In this document: positions 8,658-40,200 of the stretch, piece after piece
Numbering within the stretch: position 1 is the stretch's first letter
Layout: each line of letters begins with the position of its first letter
IMG/VR virus record: IMGVR_UViG_3300009164_003518
Span: 1 to 64,000 of that record
Length of the DNA: 64,000 nt
DNA from: an uncultured virus (IMG/VR IMGVR_UViG_3300009164_003518)
Taxonomy: Duplodnaviria; Heunggongvirae; Uroviricota; Caudoviricetes
Direction: 5' to 3' (one strand)
Notes under the pieces: generated by a model
What the model was told of the DNA's origin: nothing
What the model saw: only the letters and a program-made list of their open reading frames with translations
Databases searched by the model: none
Translations under genes and position numbers: made by a program

Positions 8658-8686
8658 ATTATAGCATAATACAGATCATATGTCAA
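8658..8686 (-). promoter_or_regulatory. Consensus sigma70 promoter with extended -10
   Basis: TTGACA-17 nt-TATAAT with TGn before the -10. Confidence 0.85.
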
Positions 8687-8931
8687 TACATTTTCTTAGG
8701 TAGTTCTTGTTCTCTGAGCTTTTTAGCCCAACGACTTTTGGCTGCGGCTGCTTTGCGCTTTCGAGCTGTTGTGGGTTTCTCGTAAAACTCTTTCTTTTGT
8801 AAATCCTTGAGTTTATTACTGTCCTCAATTTTATTTTTGAATTTACGTAGGGCACGATTAACATCGTCACCATCTCTAAGAAATACGGTTGATCCGTATA
8901 ATCTAATTGCGTTATTGTCCTTCATCTTCAT
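8683..8931 (-). CDS. rpsU: Ribosomal protein bS21
   Basis: VNRALRKFKNKIE..KKEFYEKPTTARKRKAAAAKSR. Confidence 0.92.
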   Translation of the reverse strand: MKMKDNNAIRLYGSTVFLRDGDDVNRALRKFKNKIEDSNKLKDLQKKEFYEKPTTARKRKAAAAKSRWAKKLREQELPKKMY

Positions 8932-9343: not shown

Positions 9344-9635
9344 AATAGTCTAATTGATCAATACTGTAGATGCTGAACTTAGGACCCTTTTCTTGAATTC
9401 GTTTTACAAATTCAGCTAACTCAGGCTCTTGTGTCTCATCAACTACAATATTTTTAAATTCGTGTTCGCTGTACTCTTTATATAGTCTATCTGAAGAACG
9501 CATTTGATCTTTTTTCATTATGCGTTGCCAAAGTGTTGTTTCACCTTGTTCAGCATTTTGAACATAGGTTAGTTCTTCTTCTCTTTGAGCTTCTGCTGCC
9601 CCTCTTCCTTGATCATGTAAGTTGTCTTTTTTTTT
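9309..9635 (-). CDS. -1 frame extension of the upstream membrane protein (includes track ORF 9309..9518)
   Basis: The reading frame is open from the A9 run (9627-9635): KKDNLHDQGRG..YVQNAEQGETTLWQRIMKKDQ.. Confidence 0.6.
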   Translation of the reverse strand, partial: KKKDNLHDQGRGAAEAQREEELTYVQNAEQGETTLWQRIMKKDQMRSSDRLYKEYSEHEFKNIVVDETQEPELAEFVKRIQEKGPKFSIYSIDQLDYFAQRIYELRKN

Positions 9636-10738
9636 AGATCTTCTGTAAGTTCAGGAAGAATTTGATAAGTTGATGAGTTCACTGTGAGATCCACAGTGTC
9701 AACTGTAGTAGGTTCAGTTTCTTCAACCTTGGGGGTAGCAGGAACAAATTCTACTACGGCAGTGACAGCGATATTCGGTGATTGAATTTCAATCGGTGTG
9801 TCAAGTTTTGCAACTATTGGATCTAAATTTTCAAAATGAGCAAATGGTTGATTCAAGTATGGATGTTTATCTAATACAGATTCGTCTGGTAAAACAGTTT
9901 CTTTGATCTGCTCAACCTGAGCGTCAGTTAACGGTCCATCGTCTGGCTCGTAAGTTGGCACTGGTACTACTTTTAGTTTTTCTTCTTTTAACCAGCCAAA
10001 CGTCATTTGAGCTGCCAATAGCATGATAACTGCCAAAGGATCAAATACAACCACAATTAAAATAATTACCCATGTAACGGCTTTTTCAAGAAGATTAGCA
10101 TCTGGGTTGTCACCGTAGACAAAAGCCGCGATGTATTTGATTGGTCCTACTTCGGCTTCTACTTTACGTACCTCAGCGGCAATAGGCGCCCTCTCTTCAG
10201 ATAGTTGACTAATAGTTTTCTGTTCGGCAGTGATCTCAGATTGGAGACGAGTACGTTCTTTTTGCTGTCCTCTTCGAATCGAAACTGCTTTGTCGGCACC
10301 CTTTTCATCTTGGCTTCGGCCCATGACTTGGTCCACAGCCTCATCCATCTGTTTAAGCGCCTTACGGTTCGCATCTATATTATCCTTTGCTGTCTTAATC
10401 TTTTCGTCATAGATGGCAATCTTACTTGTTACGTCGCCGCCGACTAAAGTTTGATCGGTATGTGCCTTACTTAAGAATCCAAAGATACCCATGCTGGTTA
10501 TAAACATTAGTACAATGATTGCAACCAACATGTAACTGCGTATAAAGTTAGGAGCTCGTTCCCAGTTAGCTTTAAGCCATGAAGCGCATACTAATTTTGC
10601 TATTTCTAAACTACCTCCCATAATATAGATAGGAATAGTTGCGGCTGCAAAAATAGCGGCCAAGCCAATAACACTATAATAGATGGCCACTCCGGAGATG
10701 ACAAGGCCAGTAAGGAGTAATAAAGACGCCAGTATCAT
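9569..10738 (-). CDS. Membrane protein with N-terminal TM helices, a coiled coil and a further TM helix
   Basis: Hydrophobic N-terminus, long heptad region, EVGPIKYIA..VVFDPLAV; an A AAA AAG site lies near the 3' end. Confidence 0.75.
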   Translation of the reverse strand: MILASLLLLTGLVISGVAIYYSVIGLAAIFAAATIPIYIMGGSLEIAKLVCASWLKANWERAPNFIRSYMLVAIIVLMFITSMGIFGFLSKAHTDQTLVGGDVTSKIAIYDEKIKTAKDNIDANRKALKQMDEAVDQVMGRSQDEKGADKAVSIRRGQQKERTRLQSEITAEQKTISQLSEERAPIAAEVRKVEAEVGPIKYIAAFVYGDNPDANLLEKAVTWVIILIVVVFDPLAVIMLLAAQMTFGWLKEEKLKVVPVPTYEPDDGPLTDAQVEQIKETVLPDESVLDKHPYLNQPFAHFENLDPIVAKLDTPIEIQSPNIAVTAVVEFVPATPKVEETEPTTVDTVDLTVNSSTYQILPELTEDLKKKTTYMIKEEGQQKLKEKKN

Positions 10739-23734: not shown

Positions 23735-24427
23735 TTATCCGTTTTCTTTGTAGTACTGATCTACTCTATTACACCACTGTTCTGTCCAGTAGTCAAAGTC
23801 TTTGGGTTCAAGTATAAATTCCTGATACTGGAAATCTTTACTACACATTAGAATAACTCCTTTGCGTATGTTTGTACCGTAGACTTCGTTGTGCGCCAGT
23901 GCATAGGCTGTAAGCTGTAGAAAATAGTCTCCAATCCACTCAAGTTTTTTAGGTTTATTTGTTTGTTTATAATCTAAAATACTTTGATCGCCTTCATGCA
24001 CTCCTACACAGTCAGTAGTACCCGCATATAGTTCCGGAAAGTATAACGGAACTTCGTTACCCCATACTTCGTTTACTCTATTGGTCATGCCCTGATCGAC
24101 AATGATCTTAGCCATAGCATGACTTTGCTGGCTGAAGGGATTAGTACCTGGGTCAGTTAAGAAACCTTGAGTAACATAGTCTTCAAGATATTTGTGCATA
24201 CGTGTTCCGCGATTGGCGGCTTCGGTTACAATCTCTTGAGCTTTAACTTCTCCTACGCTTTTTTTCCAACGTGCAAGTGCTTCACGTGCCTCTGCAGGCT
24301 TAGTTTTATCAAGTACTGTGGTAACAGAAGGAACTCGATGTCCTTCTGGTGTAGAGTATAATCTACGTCCGTTTACTTGTTGTCTTTCTACTGGTTTATA
24401 TTGGTAACGTTCTATTAATAATGTCAT
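23735..24427 (-). CDS. PD-(D/E)xK exonuclease (Cas4/Exo5-like)
   Basis: PSVTTVL, RGTRMH, YAGTTDC..ILDYKQ..QLTAYA. Confidence 0.9.
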   Translation of the reverse strand: MTLLIERYQYKPVERQQVNGRRLYSTPEGHRVPSVTTVLDKTKPAEAREALARWKKSVGEVKAQEIVTEAANRGTRMHKYLEDYVTQGFLTDPGTNPFSQQSHAMAKIIVDQGMTNRVNEVWGNEVPLYFPELYAGTTDCVGVHEGDQSILDYKQTNKPKKLEWIGDYFLQLTAYALAHNEVYGTNIRKGVILMCSKDFQYQEFILEPKDFDYWTEQWCNRVDQYYKENG

Positions 24428-24432
24428 AGTAC

Positions 24433-24461
24433 ATTATATAGCATTACCACAGTAAGGTCAA
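24433..24461 (-). promoter_or_regulatory. sigma70 promoter
   Basis: TTGACC-17-TATAAT. Confidence 0.8.
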
Positions 24462-24796
24462 CCTAATTTTTTTGCGGCTGCTCGTTTTGCTGAAGTATTA
24501 ACAGCGTTTTTGGCTTTTTGCTTATCACCAACTGTGCCGGGTTCTTGTTTCTTAGCTTTAGTTTTGATAGTTATACCATTTTCGTCAAAGTTATCAACAA
24601 TATTTTTTAACTCGGGAGTGGAATCAAATTGAGCCTTAAAGGCATCATAGTCAACATCTTGACCTGTTACATTCTGCATCATTTTGGAAACTGCTGGCCA
24701 GGCGAACTGTGCTGTTACGCCCTTGCTATCGGCCCTGCTTTGTAAGTTAGTAAGGATGCGGATAATCATATCCGCATCTTCATTTACTTTTTTTTT
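24458..24796 (-). CDS. -1 frameshift extension of the 305 aa protein (includes track ORF 24458..24769)
   Basis: Open from the A9 run: KKVNEDADMIIRILTNLQ..; the internal ATG is buried in a hairpin. Confidence 0.7.
   Translation of the reverse strand, partial: KKKVNEDADMIIRILTNLQSRADSKGVTAQFAWPAVSKMMQNVTGQDVDYDAFKAQFDSTPELKNIVDNFDENGITIKTKAKKQEPGTVGDKQKAKNAVNTSAKRAAAKKLG
24755..24796 (-). promoter_or_regulatory. Programmed -1 frameshift signal (A AAA AAG plus 10 bp hairpin)
   Basis: TCA AAA AAA AAG TAA, 8 nt spacer, then GATGCGGATA-TGAT-TATCCGCATC. Confidence 0.75.
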
Positions 24797-25701
24797 GAAC
24801 TAAGGATAGTGCCTAATCTACGGCTGTATTCAATACTTTCACGTTTTGCTCGGCCTGCTGCTTCTTCGCCGCCTGTTGCTGGTTCGCTTGCTGCAAATGC
24901 ATCGCCTGCGCCTGTGTCTGGCTCGCCCATTGTTGAAGGCATCTCTCCGCCTAAGTCTGACATAGGAGCAGCGCCACCCGCACCCATTGGTGCTTCTTCG
25001 CCTGTTAGGATACTAACTGCCTGAGCCAACGTTGTACGATGGCTTTCTAAACTTGTATATAATTCTTCTAATGCTGGTTTAACTTTATCGCTAAATTGTT
25101 GGCTGATATCGCTACCTAATTCGTCTCTTATAGAGTCAACTAATTCTAACATTGATTCTGCTTTCATGCCGGACACATCTTCGAGCCAGCCTGTAATACG
25201 GTCGACCATATCACGAGCACTCATAATTAGAGCTGCTTTTTCTTCTTCGCCTTCTGTTAATGTACGCTCACTTAGTACGCCACGTAACACTTCTAATGCC
25301 TCTTCGATACTTTCTTTCTTTGCCATCTTAGTTGCTGTGACGTCTTTAACTTTCTCAGCATCTTTGCCAAACTTCTTTTTAAATGTACCGTCCGCTGCAT
25401 CCATGCCTTTCTTAAACTTGGCCTTCTTGCTCTTCTCAGCTTCTGAAAGAGTACGCTCTTTAATTTCTTGGCGAACAACACCGAGCATAGCTCTGTGCTT
25501 TTGATATTCGTTGTTTTCTAAAACACTGTCAAAACTATTAGTTTTTTCAAATGTTCCAAGTTTTTCTGAAAGTTGTAGTTGTACTTGGGAAAGTTGTGCA
25601 TCGCTGAACTTGTTAAGTGTCAAGCGATAACCAAACTTATTGGCTAAACTTTCGTTAAGTGTATCACTGCTGATTTTATTCGATAATTCTCTGATTTGCA
25701 T
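24784..25701 (-). CDS. Probable head scaffold/internal protein
   Basis: MQIRELS..; many L/I-x-E sites; helical, with an acidic Gly/Ala tail; TAAATA at 25730-25735. Confidence 0.55.
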   Translation of the reverse strand: MQIRELSNKISSDTLNESLANKFGYRLTLNKFSDAQLSQVQLQLSEKLGTFEKTNSFDSVLENNEYQKHRAMLGVVRQEIKERTLSEAEKSKKAKFKKGMDAADGTFKKKFGKDAEKVKDVTATKMAKKESIEEALEVLRGVLSERTLTEGEEEKAALIMSARDMVDRITGWLEDVSGMKAESMLELVDSIRDELGSDISQQFSDKVKPALEELYTSLESHRTTLAQAVSILTGEEAPMGAGGAAPMSDLGGEMPSTMGEPDTGAGDAFAASEPATGGEEAAGRAKRESIEYSRRLGTILSSKKK

Positions 25702-25737: not shown

Positions 25738-26175
25738 TCAAAACATAGATTTAAACTTAGCGGCAATTTTTGTTTTAGCTTGTCTTGCTCGGGAGTCTGT
25801 GAGTTCCCAGCGCCACAAGGCAAGGTCGCGTCTGTCTAAATCTTTAACTGTAATGTATCTATGTTTAAAAATAGTAGCATCTGTTGCGTTCTGCTGATAA
25901 CTACTATCTAATTGTTTTATTTCATTGTAGGCTGTTAATTTATTAATACTAAAATATTTAGCTGCCATTAATGCGCAGGCCTTAAGGTTAAACTTATCAA
26001 CTAAGTAACCTCCAATCCTGAGTAAATTCCAGGTTCCTTGGTTATTTCGCTTAATTCTAAATCCAGCGTAAACCAAACTACCATCATTTAGCAATGCCAC
26101 TGGTAATTCTTTCTTAAATTCTTCTTCAAGAAAGTTCTCTAATTTTTCCGCTTGTTTTTTAAAATTCATTGGCAA
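25738..26175 (-). CDS. Hypothetical protein
   Basis: Fits the operon. Confidence 0.6.
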   Translation of the reverse strand: MPMNFKKQAEKLENFLEEEFKKELPVALLNDGSLVYAGFRIKRNNQGTWNLLRIGGYLVDKFNLKACALMAAKYFSINKLTAYNEIKQLDSSYQQNATDATIFKHRYITVKDLDRRDLALWRWELTDSRARQAKTKIAAKFKSMF

Positions 26176-26359
26176 TTACCTTAGGATTACTGTCTCCTAT
26201 CTTAATTACCAAACTTTTGCGTATGAGGCCTTCGATTATGAATTGATCATGCTCGTTAAAACTATTTAGGTAAGACACAGATTCAAGACGCCTAAGCATG
26301 GCATCTTCTTCTCGTGTAGTCCAAATTACAAAATTGCCAATTAACTCGTTAATTTTCAT
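26159..26359 (-). CDS. Small hypothetical protein (MKINEL N-terminus)
   Basis: ATGA overlap; LIRKSLV motif. Confidence 0.6.
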   Translation of the reverse strand: MKINELIGNFVIWTTREEDAMLRRLESVSYLNSFNEHDQFIIEGLIRKSLVIKIGDSNPKVIANEF

Positions 26360-27180
26360 AATCCTGCCATCTTACGTATATGGGAAATATCTTCTACCGG
26401 TGAAGCTGATACTGCTACGTCTTTGCCTACAAAGTTAGGCTTAACGTCTGCACCGCCTGGACCACCTTGCCCTGGCATTTGTAATTGTAATTTGCCAGTT
26501 TCATCTTGCGAAATTTTTGGTGCGTTAGGATTGGTTTTATCAATCTGTGTTTGAACACCGGTTGTTGGATTTTGCAGGACGGTCTGCTTGTCATCATCCT
26601 TGGCTACTTTTAGCATGCCGCTTTCTTCGTCCACTGTGTCATCTGCCTTGCCAAAAGGATGCACTTCTGCCCACTGTGTGCCTTGCTTCTGTACCCATTT
26701 ACCAGGTTTAAACTTACTGCGAATAATGCCGTGTAACTTCAATGCTTGCTCTGGGGTATCTCTAAATCCTTGGGCGCGAGCTTCACGCTCAACTTGATTA
26801 GAAACCATTTTCTTTTTAAGTCTGCCATCGGCATAAATGTAAAGTAAATTAGATTCGTCACTCATGTCTCTTTCACGTCGACCAAACCCTGTTTCGCTGG
26901 ATTGTTTATCTCTGTCATATGCAGATGCACTGCCTTGACTGCGATATAGTGCTTCTTGTTCAGTGCTTTCGCGTTCCATACGATCGTTATAGTCGTTGGC
27001 CATTTGTTCTTTCTTGTCTAAATAATTTTGATATCTCTGTTGATCACGCTCAGTTGCATCTGGTGCGTCTGCTTTGGCCTTTAGATAGGTAGCATGTGAT
27101 TGATCTAATGATCGACGGTGTTGTGCAGCCACACTGTTTGGATTATATGCTTCCGCTGGTTTAATTTGATTTACTTTCAT
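26356..27180 (-). CDS. Probable capsid-internal protein
   Basis: Hydrophilic; C-terminus HIRKMAGL. Confidence 0.5.
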   Translation of the reverse strand: MKVNQIKPAEAYNPNSVAAQHRRSLDQSHATYLKAKADAPDATERDQQRYQNYLDKKEQMANDYNDRMERESTEQEALYRSQGSASAYDRDKQSSETGFGRRERDMSDESNLLYIYADGRLKKKMVSNQVEREARAQGFRDTPEQALKLHGIIRSKFKPGKWVQKQGTQWAEVHPFGKADDTVDEESGMLKVAKDDDKQTVLQNPTTGVQTQIDKTNPNAPKISQDETGKLQLQMPGQGGPGGADVKPNFVGKDVAVSASPVEDISHIRKMAGL

Positions 27181-27893
27181 TTGTGTTCTCCAAGGCTCAG
27201 TGCCTTATCTTGTAATTTATATAAGTGCTGTTGTAATTGTCCAATAAAGCCTTTAGCACGTAACACTTTAAATGCTACATTCTCTACACTGAACTCACCA
27301 CCTTGTTCTAATCCTGACTGACGCAATTTTTTAATTTCTTGTTGCACTTCTTTAGCTTCTTCAAAACTATCAGTAGTAAGTGCCTGCATTATTTTATTTA
27401 AGTAATTCTCAACTTTTGCAGTAACGTCGCTGTCGCTGATTTTAATAGTGCTCATAGTTGGTTCACTAAGCCACTTGTTGTCAAGTATACTGTAGACTCC
27501 AAGACTGTGATGCTCTTGACTATCTGGTTGTACATATAACTCTACGTCAATGCCTTTGATTTTAATATCGTGTATATGATTATACTGATTTTTCTTTGCA
27601 TCGTAAAGCGGTTTGAGTAATAGCTCTCGTTCAGCGGGTACTGTAACTATTAAGTGTAAATCTAAATCGCTTTGTGGAGTGTAGGAATATGCTGCGTTGG
27701 ATCCTGATATTGTAACATCTTTGAGCAATAGTTCAGGGATATCTATGAATTCGATAAAATGTTTTGCTATTTGTAATAGCTTATATCTTATCTGGGGATG
27801 TAGTATACTACCTTGCCATAAGAGAGGATTCAGTTCTTTATGAAATTGAACAGCTGAGTCGACTATGCCTTCTGTGAATTCTCTTATATACAT
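27177..27893 (-). CDS. Nucleotidyltransferase (Pol-beta superfamily)
   Basis: SGSNAAYSY..SDLDLHL..VELYVQ..GEFSVENVAFKVLR; MYIREF N-terminus. Confidence 0.8.
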   Translation of the reverse strand: MYIREFTEGIVDSAVQFHKELNPLLWQGSILHPQIRYKLLQIAKHFIEFIDIPELLLKDVTISGSNAAYSYTPQSDLDLHLIVTVPAERELLLKPLYDAKKNQYNHIHDIKIKGIDVELYVQPDSQEHHSLGVYSILDNKWLSEPTMSTIKISDSDVTAKVENYLNKIMQALTTDSFEEAKEVQQEIKKLRQSGLEQGGEFSVENVAFKVLRAKGFIGQLQQHLYKLQDKALSLGEHK

Positions 27894-27912
27894 CGTGCAT
27901 TATTTAACAGAA

Positions 27913-28260
27913 TTATAAGCCGAGGAACTTTAATACATGTGGGAAGTTAATAGCGTTGATCCAGCCTGCGCCTGCGGCAAACGCTAAACCTGCCATAGCA
28001 TACAGTGTGACTTTGTTTTTGATTTTTTCTAAACCGTTGATCTTTTCAAAGATCTCGTCGTGTTGCTTGTTGCTGGCATCTGCCATCTCACACAGTTTCT
28101 TGTCCAGCAAGTCACGGGTGTTGTCCAAACAATCGTGCATGTCTTTGACGTCTGCCTTGAGTTCGTCAAGTTTACTTTCTATTTGGTGTACTTTGGTTTC
28201 AACTACCGCTACACGCTCTGGTAACGTAGCCAATTGTGCTACTGCTTCTTTTGTGGCCAT
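27913..28260 (-). CDS. Coiled-coil protein with a C-terminal TM helix (XhlA/holin-like)
   Basis: ERVAVVETKV.. heptads and a C-terminal hydrophobic helix; GGAG RBS before MATKE. Confidence 0.55.
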   Translation of the reverse strand: MATKEAVAQLATLPERVAVVETKVHQIESKLDELKADVKDMHDCLDNTRDLLDKKLCEMADASNKQHDEIFEKINGLEKIKNKVTLYAMAGLAFAAGAGWINAINFPHVLKFLGL

Positions 28261-28363
28261 AATTAGGCATTCTCCAATGTTATAAGTCAGGGGTTCGCTC
28301 AGAACCATGTGCCTACTGTATGATTGAAATGCCTAATGTGTAAAATGCCTACTGTTATATTTA
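28261..28363 (-). promoter_or_regulatory. Structured 5' leader with three UAGGCA repeats
   Basis: Repeats at 28310, 28330 and 28346 are complementary to AAUGCCUA between the SD and the AUG; GGUUC/GAACC hairpin. Confidence 0.6.
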
Positions 28364-28768
28364 GCTTCTTAAGTAAAAAACAATATTTCGAGATGCCCCA
28401 TCGGTTACAAATACATTGTAGTTTTGTTCAATACTTTCGCTAAGTCCTGCGATATACGGTACTCCGTTAAAGTCAGTTATCATATAGCCTACAGGATTCT
28501 CGTTATGTTCAAATAATCGATCACGTTCTGTATAAAAGTCAAATGCCCATATTCTAATAATTTCGTTAGTATTAAATCCTAATGCAGTGCCAACGCTGTT
28601 GATTAACTGTGGCGGAGTAGTAAACGATATATTTGCCCTAATACCAAGTGTTTGTATAACTGTTTGAAAGTTTTGTTCTTTCCAGCGTAATTCTTCTTTG
28701 CCCAGTTCGCTTCTATATTGCCCGGTATGTGTAATATCAACTGTGGTGTATAAACTGTAATTCATCAC
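28361..28768 (-). CDS. Hypothetical protein
   Basis: LYTTVDITHTG..QNFQTVIQTLGIRAN; TAAATA upstream. Confidence 0.65.
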   Translation of the reverse strand: MMNYSLYTTVDITHTGQYRSELGKEELRWKEQNFQTVIQTLGIRANISFTTPPQLINSVGTALGFNTNEIIRIWAFDFYTERDRLFEHNENPVGYMITDFNGVPYIAGLSESIEQNYNVFVTDGASRNIVFYLRS

Positions 28769-28783
28769 GTATTTAACAGAGGT

Positions 28784-28810
28784 AAAAAAGCCTGCTATAA
28801 AAGCAGGCTT
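28784..28810 (-). terminator. Rho-independent terminator
   Basis: AAGCCTGCT-TTTAT-AGCAGGCTT followed by TTTT. Confidence 0.8.
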
Positions 28811-28839
28811 AGTCTTCCCATCCCGGGGTAAGTCGTTAA

Positions 28840-29208
28840 TTACTTAGCTGGTGTAAAGATTGCTTCGATACTAACAGTAACACCTGCAATAGCCATGTCA
28901 GCATCAGCAACTGTTAGGTCGCCTGTGCCTTGAACACGCAAGAATACATTGTCAGTTGTTCCGCTAACGAAAGCTGAACCGTCTGCTGTACCAACTGCTG
29001 CAACTGTGAATGCTGAATCACCTGTTCCACCAGAACCGTGTGCAGTTGTGATGTAACCAATGATTGAAGACAAGTCAGCGTCTGTTAAGTTTGTACCTGC
29101 AACCTTAACGATCAGCTCGCGGCCGACGTCAGCTTGGTTGATTTGGTGCTTTAAATAATTTGCGCCAACTGTTGTTGCGCCTACTACTACTGAAATATTT
29201 GATGGCAT
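28840..29208 (-). CDS. Probable virion structural protein
   Basis: Gly/Ala/Thr-rich, strong GAGGAG RBS, with its own TAAATA and terminator. Confidence 0.55.
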   Translation of the reverse strand: MPSNISVVVGATTVGANYLKHQINQADVGRELIVKVAGTNLTDADLSSIIGYITTAHGSGGTGDSAFTVAAVGTADGSAFVSGTTDNVFLRVQGTGDLTVADADMAIAGVTVSIEAIFTPAK

Positions 29209-29319
29209 AATAATTCTCCTCTGGATATGCTATTCAACTACTCACACTCTGTGAGCCTTTGTAATAATATTTATCCAAACTCTGGAAAAATGTTCAGTAA
29301 GAGTACAGTTTTAGTGACT

Positions 29320-29973
29320 TTATTTTAATGGGTTTGACAGTACTTGATCAATATCTTGTAGTAGGTCAAATTGCGGCATATATGTTCTATATGCATTTAA
29401 AATGCGGGCGGCAGTGTTTGATACGTCACTATCCACTGGATTATTGTAGCTTAATAATCTGCGTATTTCTTTGTAAAGTGCTGTGTTAATTCCCAGAGCC
29501 TGTTCAAGCTGCATTAAAAAATAAACATTGCGACTGCTTTCGCTGTTAATGGTGTATAACCATCCATTTAGTGCCATGGTAGGTAAATGTATGCGTTCAC
29601 GAGCTTTACGTGCATCTGATGAATGGAATATTTGTTCAACTCGTCGAGGGTCTGCTTGTACAAAATATACTAAATTATGCAGGTCAGTTGCACCGGATCT
29701 AAACTCTGTATAGTTACTATACATACAGGTAGTCTTAGCATATCTTTCTGCAATTTTTTTACCGTTCTTTAATCTTGATAAGAATTCAATGGTAAGCACA
29801 GTAAGGTACAATAATTCGCAGGCACCACTGTAGGTTAATTTTAGATCGCTTTCACTGCGTAGCATTCGAGCTTCTTTTAATTCTTTGATAAAGCTCATCA
29901 TGCCTGTAGGTTTTGATTCATAGTCTAAACTATGGCCGCCTGCCATTAACGCTCTTTCCATTTCTGTAAACAT
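29320..29973 (-). CDS. Hypothetical protein, probably head-associated
   Basis: EMERALMAGGHSL; internal MSFIKELKE. Confidence 0.55.
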   Translation of the reverse strand: MFTEMERALMAGGHSLDYESKPTGMMSFIKELKEARMLRSESDLKLTYSGACELLYLTVLTIEFLSRLKNGKKIAERYAKTTCMYSNYTEFRSGATDLHNLVYFVQADPRRVEQIFHSSDARKARERIHLPTMALNGWLYTINSESSRNVYFLMQLEQALGINTALYKEIRRLLSYNNPVDSDVSNTAARILNAYRTYMPQFDLLQDIDQVLSNPLK

Positions 29974-31124
29974 TATGTAGGTGTCCAGCGTTTACGAGGT
30001 ACAAGTTTAACGTTGCCAAATTGTTTGTTTTTATCGGCATAGCGTACACGCCCTTCACCTTCAGTATCCCAAATTTCTCCTTGGGCACCGCTTTCAATTT
30101 GTTGTATAACGTCGTCTTTAAGTTCCATTATCTGAGTAACAAGACTAAACACAGCTTCTAATGCATTTTGATTTAGCTGTGCTAACTCTTTAATCTTGGT
30201 CTGCTTATTAGTACTGACCTTGCTGGTAGTAAGCCAATTAAAGAAGGCATTAGCATTTAGATTAGCGAGCTGTTTGGCCTTAGCAGTTTGGTTAACAAAG
30301 GTATAGAGTATATTTTTAAGGTCGCCAAGTCCTGGAGTTTCTTGTAAAAAACTATCTATACCCTTAGCGTTCTGTTTAAGATATGCTTCAACTGCTGCGA
30401 TTTTATCGCTGCCGACACTCACAGGTGAGGAATTATAAACTGGGCCTTGTACAATTAATTGTGCCGTGCCGTTAAACATGCTGAAGTCGTCTAATGGCTT
30501 TTGTTCATCGTCTGGCATGCCAAACTGTGGAAAAAATGCATGTCCCACAACCATTACCTGTGCGTTGGCAATACGTTGCCCAAGTTCACTGTCTGCTCTT
30601 ACGTGATAGCAAGTCTTTGATTTAGGATTAGGACAGAATGTATAAACACCTTGTTGATCTACTGCTGGTTGTTGTAAAAATAATCCGTCAGCGTAGACAA
30701 AGCCCACAAAGTCACGGGGTGTAGCTTTGTCAAATAACGGATATAGCGATGCAAATTGTTTGGCAAATTGATCACGTGCTCGCTTGTCTTCTGGGGTCTT
30801 AGGTGTACCGCTTTTGTTAGCAATAAAATCTTCTACTTCTTCTGGGCTTGTGGTCATTGCACCACGGCTCCAACCATTATGTCCAGCTAACACTAACGGG
30901 CCGCCTCGCGTTGCACGGCCCCAATATATTTGAGGATTACCGTCCCATTTCATACGTACAGTTTGACTGCCTTCTTCTGTGGCAATTTCTCTAACGTGTG
31001 CAAGAGCTTCAAGCGTTCCATTACTGCCATGGAAGAATACGAGATCTTCCAGATGGTTAAATGCACGGCCAAGTTTTTTCTTGGCAGCTACCTCTGCTTC
31101 TTTTAAGAATTCATTTGCTCTCAT
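29973..31124 (-). CDS. DUF6267-like protein with a ligase-type KxDG motif
   Basis: HLEDLVF, KWDGNP, ADGLF, GEG.V, VKLVPR; MRANEFLKE N-terminus. Confidence 0.7.
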   Translation of the reverse strand: MRANEFLKEAEVAAKKKLGRAFNHLEDLVFFHGSNGTLEALAHVREIATEEGSQTVRMKWDGNPQIYWGRATRGGPLVLAGHNGWSRGAMTTSPEEVEDFIANKSGTPKTPEDKRARDQFAKQFASLYPLFDKATPRDFVGFVYADGLFLQQPAVDQQGVYTFCPNPKSKTCYHVRADSELGQRIANAQVMVVGHAFFPQFGMPDDEQKPLDDFSMFNGTAQLIVQGPVYNSSPVSVGSDKIAAVEAYLKQNAKGIDSFLQETPGLGDLKNILYTFVNQTAKAKQLANLNANAFFNWLTTSKVSTNKQTKIKELAQLNQNALEAVFSLVTQIMELKDDVIQQIESGAQGEIWDTEGEGRVRYADKNKQFGNVKLVPRKRWTPT

Positions 31125-31873
31125 ATTTTATTCAACACGTTACGGAACCATTCTTGTGGTCCTTCTTCGGCAACTTTATCTTGCTTTTTTGGACTCCAAT
31201 TAGGATCCTCTTCGGCTCGGGCAAGTAATGCCTGTGCTTGCTCTTCAGGCAATGATTTCAATATAGCTTCTACACTACCAAGACTCTTTGATGTTGCCTT
31301 TGGACTAATAAGTCGCTGTGCTATTTCATCAAGGTCATCGCTGACAAATTCGCCTTTTTTACCTTCAGCGGTTCTACTGAACAAGCCTTGCCAAGCTGAC
31401 CACATATAACCTTTTTGTTTGGCCAAGATGGCCATGACCAACTGTTTGTTTACACCTTTATATGGGCTTTTATCTGGAATATCATGTGTGTGAAATTTAC
31501 TGATTCTGTCTGCCTTAGGAGTAATCATTATATCTACTTGGTGGGCTTCGGTACCAACTGGCACACGAACATGTACGTTGATACCAGTTTGTGCAGTTTG
31601 TAAACCCTGAGCTGAAATAAAATCACTTAACGCTCTACGTGCAGATTTGGCATCTTTTGATTTAAAAAAATTAACTACTTGTTCTTCGTCAGCAATAACA
31701 TCCATGTCACCACTTTTCTTGCCAGCTTTTGGAGTAGCTGCTGATCCAACTGGGATCACAGAAAGGCCTGCGCCTGCTACTGCTCGTTGTACTTTATTTA
31801 AAATCTCTGGCACCAATGCGTGATCAAATGGTGTAACATCCGGAAATACATTTCCGCCTTCAAGCAGTATCAT
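31121..31873 (-). CDS. Nucleotidyltransferase-fold protein
   Basis: LLEGGNVF, VGSA..KSGDMDV, QVDIM, SPYKGV. Confidence 0.75.
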   Translation of the reverse strand: MILLEGGNVFPDVTPFDHALVPEILNKVQRAVAGAGLSVIPVGSAATPKAGKKSGDMDVIADEEQVVNFFKSKDAKSARRALSDFISAQGLQTAQTGINVHVRVPVGTEAHQVDIMITPKADRISKFHTHDIPDKSPYKGVNKQLVMAILAKQKGYMWSAWQGLFSRTAEGKKGEFVSDDLDEIAQRLISPKATSKSLGSVEAILKSLPEEQAQALLARAEEDPNWSPKKQDKVAEEGPQEWFRNVLNKI

Positions 31874-34270: not shown

Positions 34271-37200
34271 TTATCCTATCCAAATCTGCTTAGAAGATCC
34301 CGAACCTGCTATCACTCGTACTTCGCCAGACTCACCGCCCAACTTCAACGATGCAGGTTCATTCGAGTACTCTTGTTTGAACAGTGTATAGCCCTTGGTG
34401 AAACTGTAGCCCATAATATCACCAACGTGATTTACAGGATAGTACATTCGAGTTACACCAAGATTGTCAATTAGATCAAGATCTACATATGAACTATTGA
34501 TGTCACTTCTACTGCTCTGTGTTAGATAATCAGCAGTAATGTTAATTGTAGGATCTTGAACTATGTTAGATACTATGGTGTTGCTGGCTTCAGCCATCAA
34601 GTCTGACACAGTGACATTGCTCACTGCCATAGTCATACTTGTTGCCACTTCTGCACCTAACTGATTGACTGAGAACACTTCAACAAAGTTGAATATCTGC
34701 TCAATGGCAGTGTCAATGTTGTAAGTAACAAACGGTATGTCATTGAAGTTGTACTTGACAGATGTACTGAAAATAGTAATCACTGCCAATACTGCATCAT
34801 TGACATTGTTACTGATAATAGTATTAGATGCTACACTGCTCAGTTCGTTATCGCTTGTTGATGCAACTGAGATAATAACTGCCACTTGAACATCAGCATC
34901 GAACACCAACGCTGTGGTATCAACGAAGTTGAATATTTGGACAATGGCTTCTTCGGCAACTAACTCAACAAACTGTACAGTTTCAACGTTACTGGTTATC
35001 TCATTGCTGACAATGTCTACTACAGCCAAGTTAGTTGTGTCAGTGTATGAGTATACTACTGCTACTTGTACATCAGCGTCAACTTCATTATTTGAAACAT
35101 CAACGACATTGAATGATTGTATGACTATGTCTTCAGCAACTAACTCAACAAACTGTACAGTTTCAACATTGCTGGTTATTTCAGTGCTGACAATGTCAAC
35201 CACAGCAAGGTTAGCACTATCGTCATAGGCATATACTATTGATACTTGTACTTCGGCTGCTATTTCATTATCTGAAATATTAACAACATTGTATGATTGT
35301 ATGACTATGTCTTCAGCAACTAACTCAACAAACTGTACAGTTTCAACATCGCTGGTTATTTCAGTGCTGACAATGTCTACTACAGCAAGGACGGCACTAT
35401 CAACTACATTAACTGCTCTGCTGATCAATACAGTAGCATCTATCTCACTGTCGGAAGTATCAACATAGTTGAATATCAGTTGAATTAGATCTTCTGCGGC
35501 AACTTCTACGTCAGCATCAGAAACAACAAAACTTGTTATGGCGTTATCGCCTGTTGCACCAATGTCGGCAATGTATCCAAATTCTGCGCCGAGGTTGTGT
35601 ATCTGTACAATGCCAAGGTCTGTTACGTTGGTATTATCTAACAACAGGCCTGTACCAGTGACATATGGTCCATCAGTTGGGCCATTTAGTGCATCTGATA
35701 CAGATATTGTTATTGTATAAGAACTGTCTGGCTGTTCTTCTACAACTATATCACTGATAGTTCCATAATAGACAAACGGTGAGCCGTCAATTAACAATCG
35801 CTGGCCACGGTTTGGAGCAAATACTTTATCTTCTATGGCTTTGAGCAGTGCGGCCACATCGCCAGGTTGTCCATCACTTCTGTCTTCACCTGCCAGCACA
35901 ACGTCTGCCGTGTCACCAATCTTGGCATATTCGAACGGCACTTGTGGTACTGCCAACCGTACTTTGATGGCTTTGTCGTAGAGATCCAGATCAGCGGATT
36001 CTGGATAATTGAATATTCGTTTCTCAATTGCTGTTGCAGCCAACTCGAAGAACTGTATAGTTTCTACATTGCTGGTTATCTCATTGCTGACAATGTCTAC
36101 TACAGCCAATACAGCAGTGTCATAATATACATGTACTAATTTTACTACTACATCTGCATCTAATTCAACATCAACAGTGTTATCAACAACGAATATCTGC
36201 TGGATAGTATCTGTAGCAGCCAATTCAAAGAACTGTACAGTATCAACGTTGCTGGTTATCTCGTTACTGACAATATCTACCAAGGCCAATACAGCAGTGT
36301 CATCAATGCTGAATGACTTGCTGATTACCACTGTGGCATCAATTTCTAAGGCTGTACTATCAACATAGTTAAATCGTTGTTCAATGGCTTCTGTAGCAGC
36401 AAGATCTAAGAATGAACTGTCTTGTACATTGCTGGTTATCTCATTGCTGACAATATCTACTACAGCCAACACAGCATTGTCACTGAACGAGTAGGCATTT
36501 GATATAACAACAGTAGATTCAATTTCTAAATCAGTTGTGTCTACATAATTGAATCGCTGTTCAATTGCTTCATTGACACCCATGTCAAGTGCTATGGTAT
36601 TGTCAAGTTCAGTTATGTACTCAATGCTCTGTATGTCTACCAATGCCAACACAGCACTGTCGTCAACTGCATAGATTGCCGATGTAGTAAATGTTGATGT
36701 TATCTCAATGTCTGCTGAATCGGCAATATTGGATACTTTTATAATGGCGTCAGTAGCAGTTAAGTCTAAGAATGAACTGTCTTGTACGTTACTTGTGTAT
36801 TCAATGCTCTGTATGTCTACTAATGCCAACACAGCACTATCAGCAAATACATATGCTAATGATATTACAGTTGTTGCGGCTATTTCTGTGTTGGCACTGT
36901 CAACATAATTAAATCTCTGCTCAACTGCTTCTGTAGCGGCAAGATCCAAGAATGAACTGTCTTGAACAGTGCTGGTTATCTCATTGCTGACAATATCTAC
37001 TACAGCCAACACAGCACTATCTGCAAATACATATGCTAATGAAACTACCGTTGTGGCATCAATTTCTAATGCTGTACTATCAACATAGTTGAATCTCTGC
37101 TCAACTGCTTCTGTAGCGGCAAGATCCAAGAATGAACTGTCTTGTACATTGCTTGTGTATTCAATACTCTGTATATCTACCAGGGCCAATACAGCACTGT

Positions 37201-40200
37201 CAACATATATGAACAACTGGCTAATTACCACTGTAGATTCAATCTCTACAGCAGCATTGTCAACATAGTTGAATCTCTGTTCAATAGCAGTAGTAGCAGC
37301 CAACTCTATGAATGAACTATCTTGAACGTTACTTGTGTATTCAATGCTCTGTATGTCTACCAGTGCCAACACAGCACTATCAGCAAATACATACGCTAAT
37401 GATATTACAGTTGTGGCTGCTATTTCAACAGCAATTGTATCAGCATAACTAACTTTCTGTTCAATAACAGTAGTGGCAGTTAAGTCTAAGAATGAACTGT
37501 CTTCAATGTTACTGATGTATTCGATACTGTGAATATCTACAACAGCAAGGGTAGCACTATCAGCAAATACATATGCCAATGATATAACAGTTGTTGCGTC
37601 TATCTCTACCGCAGTTGTATCAGCATAATTGAATCGCTGTTCAATAGCAGTGGTAGCGGCAAGTTCAAGTCCTACAGTATTATCAAGTTCAGTTATGTAC
37701 TCAATTGATTGTATATCTACAACAGCAAGATTGGCGCTGTCAACATAGTTGAATCTTTGTTTGACTGTGTCAGTGGCTGTGATCTCTACAGCAGTAGTAT
37801 CAATATAACTAATCTTCTGTTCAATAGCAGTGGTAGCGGCGAGATCTAAGAATGAACTATCTTGAACGTTACTCGAGTAGGCAATACTCTGTATATCTAC
37901 CAAGGCCAATACAGCACTGCTGTTAATTGTAACTATTCGTGTTACTACATCAGTAGCGGCAAATTCACAGAACTCTATATCATCAAAATTACGTTTAGAT
38001 GATGTAGATACAATATCAACTAATGCCAATACAGCACTGTCTGCAATAGTAACTACTCGCTTGACTGCGGCAGTGGCTGTGATCTCAAGTGCTAACGTAT
38101 TGGCAATCACACTGGCTAACGAAGTAGCATCACTATCAGCAATCACCACTGTGGCCGTGCTATCAAAGACAAAACGTTGTTCAACAACAGTTGTTGCTGT
38201 TAACTCAAGTGCTACGTTATTATTAACGTTGCTGGCTATCTCAACACTTTGTATATCAACAATGGCTAAGTTGGCTGTGTTAACAACTCCACGTGTTGAA
38301 CTTGTTACAGAACTATCAGATACTGCTAATGCAGCTTCTGTAGCATAGACTCTTATTTTACTTACTACATCAGTAGCCGCAAGTTCAATTGCTACATCAT
38401 TATCAACGTTGCTGGCTATTTCATTGCTGACAATATCTACCAGAGCCAACACAGCAGTGCTATTAATAGCACGGATGCGTTTAACAGTGGTTGTTGCCGC
38501 AATCTCAAGTTCTACTGTGTTGTCAATATTTCTCTTTACTTCAGTGCTTTGAATATCAACTACAGCCAATACCGCAGTTTCATCCAGTACAACAATCTGT
38601 TTGACTGTTGAGGTTGCGTTAAGTTCAAGATCAGTTACGCTGACTAATACAAATAGTTTAATTACTACAGCCGATGCCGCAATTTCAATAGCAACTGTAT
38701 CATCAATGACAGTTACATATTTGACTACGTCAGTAACACCCATTTCAAGTGCTATGGTATTATCAAGTTCAGTGATGTACTCAATTGATTGTATGTCAAC
38801 AACAGCCAATACCGCAGTGCTGTTAATTGCATAAACGTGTTTGATTACATCTGTAACTACAAATTCACTGAACTCTACATCATTGATATTATGTTTAGAT
38901 GACGTAGATACAATATCAACTAATGCCAATGTGACAGAGTCGTCAAGTACAACAATTTGTTTAACCGCTGAAGTAATACCAAGTTCTATTGATCCAACTG
39001 TGATACGTGACAGCGATCGTTTCTCAACTGCTGTTGCTGTAATTTCTACAGCAATCGTATCATCAATAACAGTTACGTACTTGACTACGTCAGTGACACC
39101 TATTTCAAGTGCTACGGTGTTGTCAAGTTCAGTGATGTACTCGATACTTTGTATATCAACTACAGCCAATACAGCAGTGCTATTGATTACTGATACTTGT
39201 TTGATTACATCAGTGATTATGAATTCACAGAATTCTACATCATTGATGTTGTGTTTAGATGACGTAGATACAATGTCTACCAATGCTAACTCAGCATCGT
39301 CATCAACAATGAATATCTGTTGAATTGCTGAAGTAATACCAAGTTCTATTGATCCAACTGTGATACGTGACAGCGATCGTTTCTCAACTGCTGATGCTGT
39401 AACCTCAAGTGCTGTTGTTTCAACTGACGTAACCACATGGGCAATAACATCAGTTACAGCAACTTCCAGTGCTATGGTATTGTCAATCTCTGTTGAGTAT
39501 TCAATGCTCTGTATATCTACCAGGGCCAACACGGCAGTGGCAATACGTGCAAATACTCGTTTCTCAACTGCGGTTGCTGTAATCTCAAGTGCTGTTGTTT
39601 CAACTGATGTAACCACATAGGCAACGGCATCAGTAACACCCATTTCAAGTGCTATGGTATTATCAAGTTCAGTGATGTACTCAATTGATTGTACGTCAAC
39701 AACAGCCAATACCGCAGTGCTGACAATTGCGTAAGCATGTTTGATTACATCAGTAACTTCGAATTCAAAGAATTCTACATCGGCAAAGTTGCGTTTAGAT
39801 GACGTAGATACAATATCAACTAATGCCAATACAGCATCGTCGTCAACAATGAATCTCTGCTGTATTAATGAAGTTGCAGTAATTTCAAGTGGTGCTGTGG
39901 CAATACGTGCAAATACTCGTTTCTCAACTGTGGTTGCCGCAATCTCAAGTGCTGTTGTTTCAACTGATTTGAATACTGCGGTTACCACATCAGTAACAGC
40001 AAGTTCAAGTGCTATGGTATTATCAAGTTCAGTGATGTACTCAATTGATTGTATATCAACCAGAGCCAATACCGCAGTATCGTCAAATACTCTAACATAC
40101 TTAACTACTTCGTTTCTATTAACTTCTAAAGGTATTGTAGCAACATTGTTACTGACTATGCTGTTAGATGTTACACCAAATATCTTGTACGGACGCGGTG

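Follow-up and report, generated by a model that had tools for sequence, protein, structure and literature searches.

The window analysed here is a stretch of 64,000 nucleotides from an uncultured freshwater virus and belongs to a contig of 72,957 bp. An open reading frame of 305 residues on the minus strand (ORF1) is followed by a second frame (ORF2), an exonuclease gene and then nrdA and nrdB, an order which agrees with that in phages GAP32 and RaK2. The records of near relatives reach 330–383 kb. The features discussed below are as follows, in positions of the window:

24784..25701, minus strand: ORF1, 305 aa, the predicted short isoform; homologue of RaK2 gp135, GAP32 gp293 and CBB_298
25651..25659, minus strand: L-N-E, residues 15–17 of ORF1, a candidate gp21-type cleavage site that would end an N-terminal leader
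24787..24796, minus strand: putative recoding site, nine A then G, holding A_AAA_AAA (24796..24790) and A_AAA_AAG (24793..24787), both in frame
24784..24786, minus strand: 0-frame stop TAA, directly abutting the recoding site, as in 85 of the 112 junctions compared below
24779..24787, minus strand: V-N-E in the -1 frame, a candidate prohead-protease site at which ORF2 would be released
24755..24778, minus strand: hairpin with a 10-bp stem and a 4-nt loop, separated from the heptamer by 8 nt; predicted 3' stimulator
24458..24796, minus strand: ORF2, read in the -1 frame and 109 residues long when counted after KKK
24433..24461, minus strand: sigma-70-like promoter with 11 of 12 matches, just behind ORF2 and before the exonuclease gene at 24427..23735 (phrog_298)
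9626..9635, minus strand: second A9G site in the same codon phase as the first, A9 at 9635..9627, with no near hairpin

The 3' end of ORF1 reads TCA AAA AAA AAG TAA, with the nine A at 24796..24788 on the minus strand. Past the run the -1 frame reads KKKVNEDAD and leads into the frame 24769..24458, which gives a predicted trans-frame product of 414 aa. The ATG of this downstream frame sits at the top of the stem, where the hairpin also buries it. The hairpin can be extended to 24782..24751 at the cost of one mismatch, and the 81-nt region has a predicted fold of -20 kcal/mol (z -3.4), equalled in 1 of 200 shuffles. A first-pass annotation of the window had proposed a programmed -1 frameshift of the dnaX/IS type at this position, stimulated by a perfect hairpin and yielding isoforms of about 305 and about 415 aa of a probable head scaffold protein. 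The anatomy that it described (A9G, stop, 10-bp hairpin at 8 nt and open -1 frame) was found to be exact, and the lengths of ORF1 and of the predicted trans-frame product agree with those it gave.

Homopolymers are error-prone, and the frame break could be attributed to an assembly error or to a broken gene, the true sequence being A10 in one frame. An A11 run at one locus (L246), which would need a +1 shift and may itself be an error, and the existence of fused forms are both in keeping with such an explanation. The length of the run was nevertheless maintained when checked against contigs from three other sequencing runs (X2, X6 and X7), which cross the A9 without an indel, contigs rather than raw reads being compared. 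The same break recurs in more than 100 distinct junctions at identities down to about 35%, with the stop directly after the run in 85 of 112, and the probability of an error is considered negligible.

Conservation of the junction was examined in three samples of homologous loci, which overlap and were not summed. Sample (a) was drawn from 587 IMG/VR loci identified by protein alignment, of which the best 80 were used, at 41–100% identity. Sample (b) was collected by searching DNA for a pattern of the ORF1 core and was blind to the junction; 40 of its 120 loci were too short and 80 were usable. Sample (c) consisted of 80 metagenome loci, which after removal of 16 duplicates and 7 cut loci gave 57 distinct junctions, while (a) and (b) pooled gave 112. 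Loci found by the motif were used together with the -1-frame peptides of the protein-found loci to build the ORF2 profile, and were left out of the conservation counts because they had been selected by the junction itself. The frame relation, for which the first-pass annotation had named conservation in related phages as a check, was kept in all 80 protein-found loci (the best 80 of 587), and ORF2 was also in the -1 frame in all 57 distinct metagenome junctions. The 65 distinct junctions of sample (a), drawn from the best 80 of 587 loci, comprised 48 A9G, 10 A10, 6 A9C and one A6G. In the junction-blind sample 67 of 80 loci carried an in-frame run with ORF2 in the -1 frame, 12 were runless with a Met leader of their own for ORF2, and one carried the A11 run.

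An explanation without recoding treats ORF2 as a gene of its own, whose translation would begin at the ATG at 24769 or through re-initiation, and the A run as doing no more than encode a needed Lys-Lys-Lys tail. The window does contain this ATG, and a separate start is found in 12 of the 80 junction-blind homologues and in the cultured RaK2-like phages. The ATG at 24769 is however buried in the stem and occurs in 3 of the 112 junctions, namely the window and two close relatives. An ATG within the first 15 codons of ORF2 was absent in 96 of 112 junctions, ATG, GTG and TTG were all absent in 78, and a TAATG stop-start overlap that would permit re-initiation was present in 9. The silent positions of the run are fixed, the codon that gives the first A being TCA or CCA in 106 of 112 junctions (TCA accounts for 23% of the serine codons here), and in those homologues where ORF2 is started separately the run is gone and so, for the most part, is the lysine tail. 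A separately started ORF2 in the window is regarded as very improbable, and the comparison strongly supports the two isoforms that had been proposed; programmed -1 recoding at the A9 site as such is very probably real and conserved. Homologues that lack a slippery site and start the second gene independently, which had been named beforehand as evidence against a frameshift, do occur as a minority. Since loss of the run was accompanied by gain of an ATG leader in 12 of 12 cases, these runless loci are read as ancestral and reverted states and not as a refutation.

The hairpin was followed in 30 members of the window's clade, where 92% of the cells were paired, 21 cells were changed on both sides and 6 of the 10 pairs had two-sided changes. 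None of 500 shuffles was as good, although relatedness inflates this test, and a slid alignment paired 28–47%. The stem also covaries in homologues that have no ATG to hide, the ATG being present in 3 of the 30 clade members. Across the 112 junctions a downstream structure was found within 50 nt in 65 and within 100 nt in 27 of the other 47, compared to 9 of 112 control windows (metagenome loci). Sample (b) had a stem within 60 nt in 29 of 65 loci, not significantly different from 13 other loci (p 0.24). An upstream Shine-Dalgarno sequence in place of the hairpin was considered and rejected, with 3 of 47 hairpin-less junctions against 1 of 65 (p 0.5). Pairing to the anti-Shine-Dalgarno sequence was no better than background and reached -6 kcal/mol or better in 4 of 112 junctions, and upstream structure was not enriched (5 of 47 against 1 of 65 junctions).

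A consensus scan called a terminator-like site on the plus strand at 24753–24780, which would make the hairpin and T run an intrinsic terminator of the opposite strand and the overlap of frames a by-product. Against this, the T9 begins 7–9 nt past the stem instead of adjoining it, the scan found 3 such sites where 3.5 were expected by chance, and a terminator leaves the start-less ORF2 and the hairpin-less runs unexplained. The terminator explanation is considered extremely improbable.

Programmed recoding at this site could proceed through the ribosome or through RNA polymerase, and the sequence cannot tell these routes apart because both give an identical junction. In one explanation the polymerase is faithful and only the ribosome shifts, by -1 frameshifting on the tandem heptamers A_AAA_AAA and then A_AAA_AAG with stimulation by the hairpin. 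The in-frame X_XXY_YYZ heptamer at 24793..24787 has G as its last base in 95 of 112 junctions, A in 12 and C in 5, and a single codon phase with G predominates at both A9 sites of the contig. The usual spacing of a stimulator is 5–9 nt (PMC5009743) and the covarying stem lies at 8 nt, while downstream structure at 50 or 100 nt is present in 92 of 112 junctions. A_AAA_AAG and A_AAA_AAA together make up 72% of the heptamers reported for IS elements (PMC4066793), and five ATG-less junctions carry just A6G or A8G. A purely ribosomal signal accounts less well for the survival of exactly nine A through changes of phase and loss of the G, and for the second site, which has no stimulator close by (seen in 3 of 42 at 50 nt). 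Unstimulated heptamers are moreover weak in E. coli, where bare heptamers shift 2–10 times a background of 0.055% (PMC4066793), and the heptamer is followed on its 3' side by U, which is less shift-prone than C. Frameshifting by the ribosome alone is judged unlikely. Ribosome sliding on poly(A) was also considered; it was set aside because about 11 A are needed in an E. coli cell-free system (PMC4363877).

The length of the A run was the best-kept feature of the junction. Nine or more A were present in 106 of 112 junctions and in 56 of 57 metagenome junctions, and in 17 of 112 the G was lost and the run kept. Seven related metagenome junctions, which form one clade, read TCG AAA AAA AAA G, and together with L507 in the third phase they make 8 of 57 junctions with exactly nine A, all of them -1; a near stem was found in 2 of these 8. 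Efficient slippage of bacterial polymerase is reported for runs of nine A or T (PMC5009743, PMC1088944). These data are consistent with an explanation by polymerase alone, in which an A is added on A9 as in Thermus thermophilus dnaX and the hairpin serves another purpose, such as the blocking of internal starts or protection of the message. The run is also retained in hairpin-less lineages and at the second site, and A9 is rare in five related records, where 8 of 13 occurrences fall at the two recoding sites. Slippage by polymerase alone is, however, at odds with a stem that covaries where there is no ATG to hide and lies at the distance of a frameshift stimulator, and with the five ATG-less junctions that have runs of 6 or 8 A; we hold it to be distinctly unlikely. 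Tandem slippery runs were observed near the ORF1 stop in L221, L493, L503, L233 and L244, consisting either of two A9 or of A9G followed by a shorter A_AAA_AAG.

Only two A9 runs are present on the coding strand in the whole contig, both at conserved frame junctions. The second lies 54 bases before the stop of a 389-aa ORF for a probable membrane protein (10738..9569, minus strand), and from it the -1 frame is open to 9309, giving an extension of about 107 residues and a dual-coding overlap of about 50 nt. Removal of 18 duplicates and 7 cut loci from 80 homologous loci left 55 distinct junctions, of which 39 had a run with a -1 extension, 4 had the extension in frame and 12 were without it. 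Near structure was rare: within 50 nt it was seen in 3 of 42 and within 100 nt in 12, with other runs making up three of these 42. The extension is fused in three longer proteins. This conservation suggests that the second site also recodes, extending the probable membrane protein. In five related records of 115–383 kb there were 2–3 A9 runs per record, 13 in total, with 5 at the first site, 3 at the second and 5 elsewhere. A third candidate, at an apparent domain junction of a gene of about 900 codons (L430, L431, L432–L466), was rejected; the Lys-rich A runs there, which follow an internal Met, are 4–9 bases long, with nine A in 4 and A8G, the commonest form, in 7 of 15 distinct junctions, all in frame. 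At L422 (G005:C1:192078-192088) an A10 run connects two ORFs, the upstream one of 263 aa and, in the -1 frame, the downstream one of 305 aa; this single case represents a third recoding site or else an error in the homopolymer.

The stricter conservation of run length than of the heptamer or hairpin, together with the hairpin-less second site, suggests that polymerase slippage likely adds to ribosomal frameshifting. The covarying hairpin of the window's clade agrees with the dnaX/IS-type ribosomal signal of the first-pass annotation, but in the family as a whole the conservation of nine A is stricter than that of A_AAA_AAG or of a hairpin close by. In the combined mechanism the hairpin would help the ribosome to slip back one base on A_AAA_AAG, and some transcripts would gain one more A from RNA polymerase at the nine-A run. 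Slippage by these routes would yield the 305-residue form and a 414-residue form that carries ORF2. As a counterpoint, the ninth A can also be read as part of a second heptamer, A_AAA_AAA, with no need for polymerase slippage. On balance, the action of both routes at A9 is marginally favoured.

The mechanisms and the frameshift extension of phage structural proteins are already known, and several characterised systems can be compared with this site. E. coli dnaX and the IS3/IS911-family elements (PMC4066793, PMC5009743) share the in-frame A_AAA_AAG, the 3' stem-loop at 5–9 nt and two products per gene, and the IS elements also share extension into an overlapping ORF. An upstream Shine-Dalgarno sequence is present in dnaX and in many IS, where it is not obligatory, whereas it is not enriched in the phage family; in addition the phage run of nine A exceeds the need of the heptamer, and the near stem is missing in many relatives and at the second site. 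In T. thermophilus dnaX and Deinococcus IS, for which slippage on A9 is described (PMC1088944, PMC5009743), the likeness lies in the nine-A run as best-kept feature, the tolerance of phase changes and the joining of two ORFs that one added A would cause. The phage differs in its covarying downstream hairpin and preferred A_AAA_AAG phase, both superfluous for slippage, and its site is known from sequence. The magnesium chelatase gene chlD (PMC3711429, PMC9227772) has A_AAA_AAA_AA in the same phase, a -1 shift, downstream structure and natural fusions; the cassette A_AAA_AAA_AA gave 40% shifting, whatever the mechanism, in E. coli (PMC3711429). In contrast to the phage junction, for which the evidence is comparative, chlD is a cellular enzyme gene whose shift was seen in E. 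coli reporters. In T7/T3 gp10, the major head protein of Lactobacillus phage A2, Listeria PSA/A118 and lambda gpG/gpGT (PMC5009743), a fraction of a virion or assembly protein likewise gains a C-terminal domain. The ORF1 family is unrelated to these, the extension is winged-helix-like rather than Ig-like with a protease-type motif at the junction, and ORF1/ORF2 are distinguished by separate, recoded and fused states within one family. Neither recoding site is described in the literature searched, which includes few subscription papers, and the word 'frameshift' is absent from the main text of the RaK2, CBB, phAPEC6 and bS21-phage papers.

The bS21 gene of the window lies at 8683..8919 on the minus strand (PF01165, E 1e-14), near genes for an exonuclease, a probable DnaK and Hsp20. 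In the bS21 phages of PMC9723584 this gene is located beside terminase and capsid genes, which is not the case on this contig, and because of this difference in context the Bacteroidetes host of those phages was not transferred to the present phage.

The closest characterised relatives of the locus are the gene pairs RaK2 gp135/gp136, GAP32 gp293/gp294, CBB_298/299 and Atu_ph07 AUZ94856/AUZ94855, which are homologous to ORF1/ORF2 and, in RaK2, GAP32 and CBB, syntenic before the exonuclease. These pairs differ in being two separate genes, with an ORF2 that has its own start and a leader ending I-T-E, and the ORF1 homologues of RaK2, GAP32 and CBB are without the N-terminal 140 residues. Searches by tblastn of ORF1 and of protein P0130 against annotated phages gave no match, and the cultured-phage relatives were found via Foldseek, synteny and a profile. 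ORF1 matches phrog_14154, a virion structural protein (E 3e-8), and its profile finds GAP32 gp293 (E 2.6e-19) and RaK2 gp135 (E 2.9e-14) among 19 neighbouring proteins. The AF2 model of ORF1 is all-helical (pLDDT 78), and Foldseek links it to RaK2 and Atu_ph07 proteins. Both the homology and the synteny with the RaK2 gp135/GAP32 gp293 virion protein family were thus observed. By mass spectrometry CBB_298 gave 10 peptides and CBB_299 gave 2 in CBB virions (PMC5259590), and gp135 gave 7 in RaK2 virions, gp136 being absent from the supplement searched (PMC3622015).

The head scaffold function given to ORF1 in the first-pass annotation was not supported in its strict sense. ORF1 is a long helical protein with L/I-X-E motifs, as expected of a gp22-type scaffold by a weak criterion, but its locus does not adjoin the genes of a prohead protease and of a major capsid protein. 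The PF03420 gp21-type protease and its acidic neighbours lie at least 110 kb from ORF1 in 4 of 4 near-complete relatives, those neighbours have no match to the ORF1 profile, and in CBB the head genes are CBB_252–257 while the ORF1 homologue is CBB_298. ORF1 is therefore probably not the gp22-type scaffold, scaffold-like genes being found beside the gp21 protease, and the distance from that protease, the unlike neighbours and the homology to a virion protein indicate that ORF1 is probably a virion protein.

The ORF2 profile gave weak matches to GAP32 gp294 and RaK2 gp136 (E 6e-4 and 1e-3), with an hhalign probability of 28%. ORF2 is a probable homologue of GAP32 gp294, RaK2 gp136 and CBB_299, an assignment in which the sequence link is weak and which leans on synteny. 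The protein is basic, with a pI of 9.4 counted after the E of V-N-E, and its model has an H-E-H-H-E-E, winged-helix-like arrangement (pLDDT 73). When this model was compared with solved structures the best VIA Z was 6.8 (rmsd 4.3, 77 residues), short of a clear match, with many winged-helix entries in the top rows, and Foldseek gave no PDB match at E 0.001. No significant Pfam match was obtained for ORF1, for ORF2 or for the extension at the second site, and the ESM Atlas returned unnamed viral clusters only.

A protease-type motif is present behind the lysines of the junction. The pattern [VILM]xE occurs within 12 residues in the -1 frame in 111 of 112 junctions, compared to 20 of 809 control windows, and I-T-E-D-A occupies the equivalent place in GAP32 gp294 and RaK2 gp136. 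Forms of ORF2 with their own start open with M-[RK]-x-x-[EDQ], and most of them have [ILFY]-x-E within 10–11 residues; the recoded forms have no Met leader, yet keep [VILM]-x-E right behind the lysines. In ORF1, N16 and E17 are nearly invariant in 44 homologues, and E17, E82, E150 and E288 are conserved. T4 gp21 cleaves after L/I-X-E, and leaders of 10 residues direct internal proteins to the head (PMC9026906); phAPEC6, a relative, carries an inner body in its head (PMC7247149). As an L/I-X-E-type leader motif is present in ORF1 and in the separately started ORF2 forms, these motifs suggest that the products of ORF1 and ORF2 may be targeted to the prohead, located inside the head and cleaved. 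ORF2 would then be made at a set, lower ratio and carried into the prohead on ORF1, where cleavage at V-N-E by a gp21-type protease would release the domain that is basic and winged-helix-like.

Further features were observed in the neighbourhood. The -10 box of the sigma-70-like promoter behind ORF2 ends 5 nt before the exonuclease ATG, a similar stretch is present in six close homologous loci, and the position suggests a leaderless transcript. Genes upstream of ORF1 (26159..31873, minus strand) have the similar N-termini MKINEL, MYIREF, MRANEF and MILLEG, and this row possibly encodes further head-targeted proteins. A 2956-aa ORF at 34271..43141 on the minus strand is repetitive, acidic and rich in Val, Ile, Ala and Thr.

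The history of the junction was examined with a FastTree phylogeny of ORF1 (131 rows, 217 columns) with its root placed on GAP32 and RaK2, in which an ORF2 homologue is started separately as in other RaK2-like cultured phages. In this provisional tree separate genes were basal and the recoded state fell in one group, with a support of only 0.78. Inside the recoded group there were three apparent returns to a separate start (one of them nested, support 0.996) and two fusions. In-frame ORF1–ORF2 fusions made up 2 of 270 proteins, P0162 and P0152, the latter in a cluster of 7. Both read KKK-I-S at the junction, that of P0152 being known as protein only. L196 and L487 carry A6G in frame together with a Met leader and a probable ribosome-binding site for ORF2, and are read as a state intermediate between recoded and separate ORF2. 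In a basal group (L216, L243, L267 and L282) an extra ORF lies between ORF1 and ORF2, with similar M-[RK]-x-x-[ED] leaders at the start of both. Recoding appears to have replaced the start signal of a once separate ORF2 gene.

A more tentative proposal, which we regard as possible but doubtful, is that the nine-A run is a reusable two-isoform switch acting at both polymerase and ribosome and tuned for each gene by a hairpin. At the present locus it would have taken the place of the start codon and the capsid-targeting leader in a virion protein that was once encoded separately and would now enter the head attached to its neighbour, in a set ratio, to be freed by the prohead protease, the separate, recoded and fused states having been exchanged several times. 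A recoding site is well supported in a large and widespread group of uncultured RaK2-related jumbo phages, in which gene callers annotate a truncated ORF2 or miss its start. The natural variants (A9G, A10, A9C, A8G, A6G, shifted phase, with or without hairpin, separate start and fusion) form a ready panel that bears on the division of work between ribosome and polymerase at A-rich sites. The comparison also suggests a route by which recoding may arise between two separate structural genes and fix the proportion of their products in the virion.
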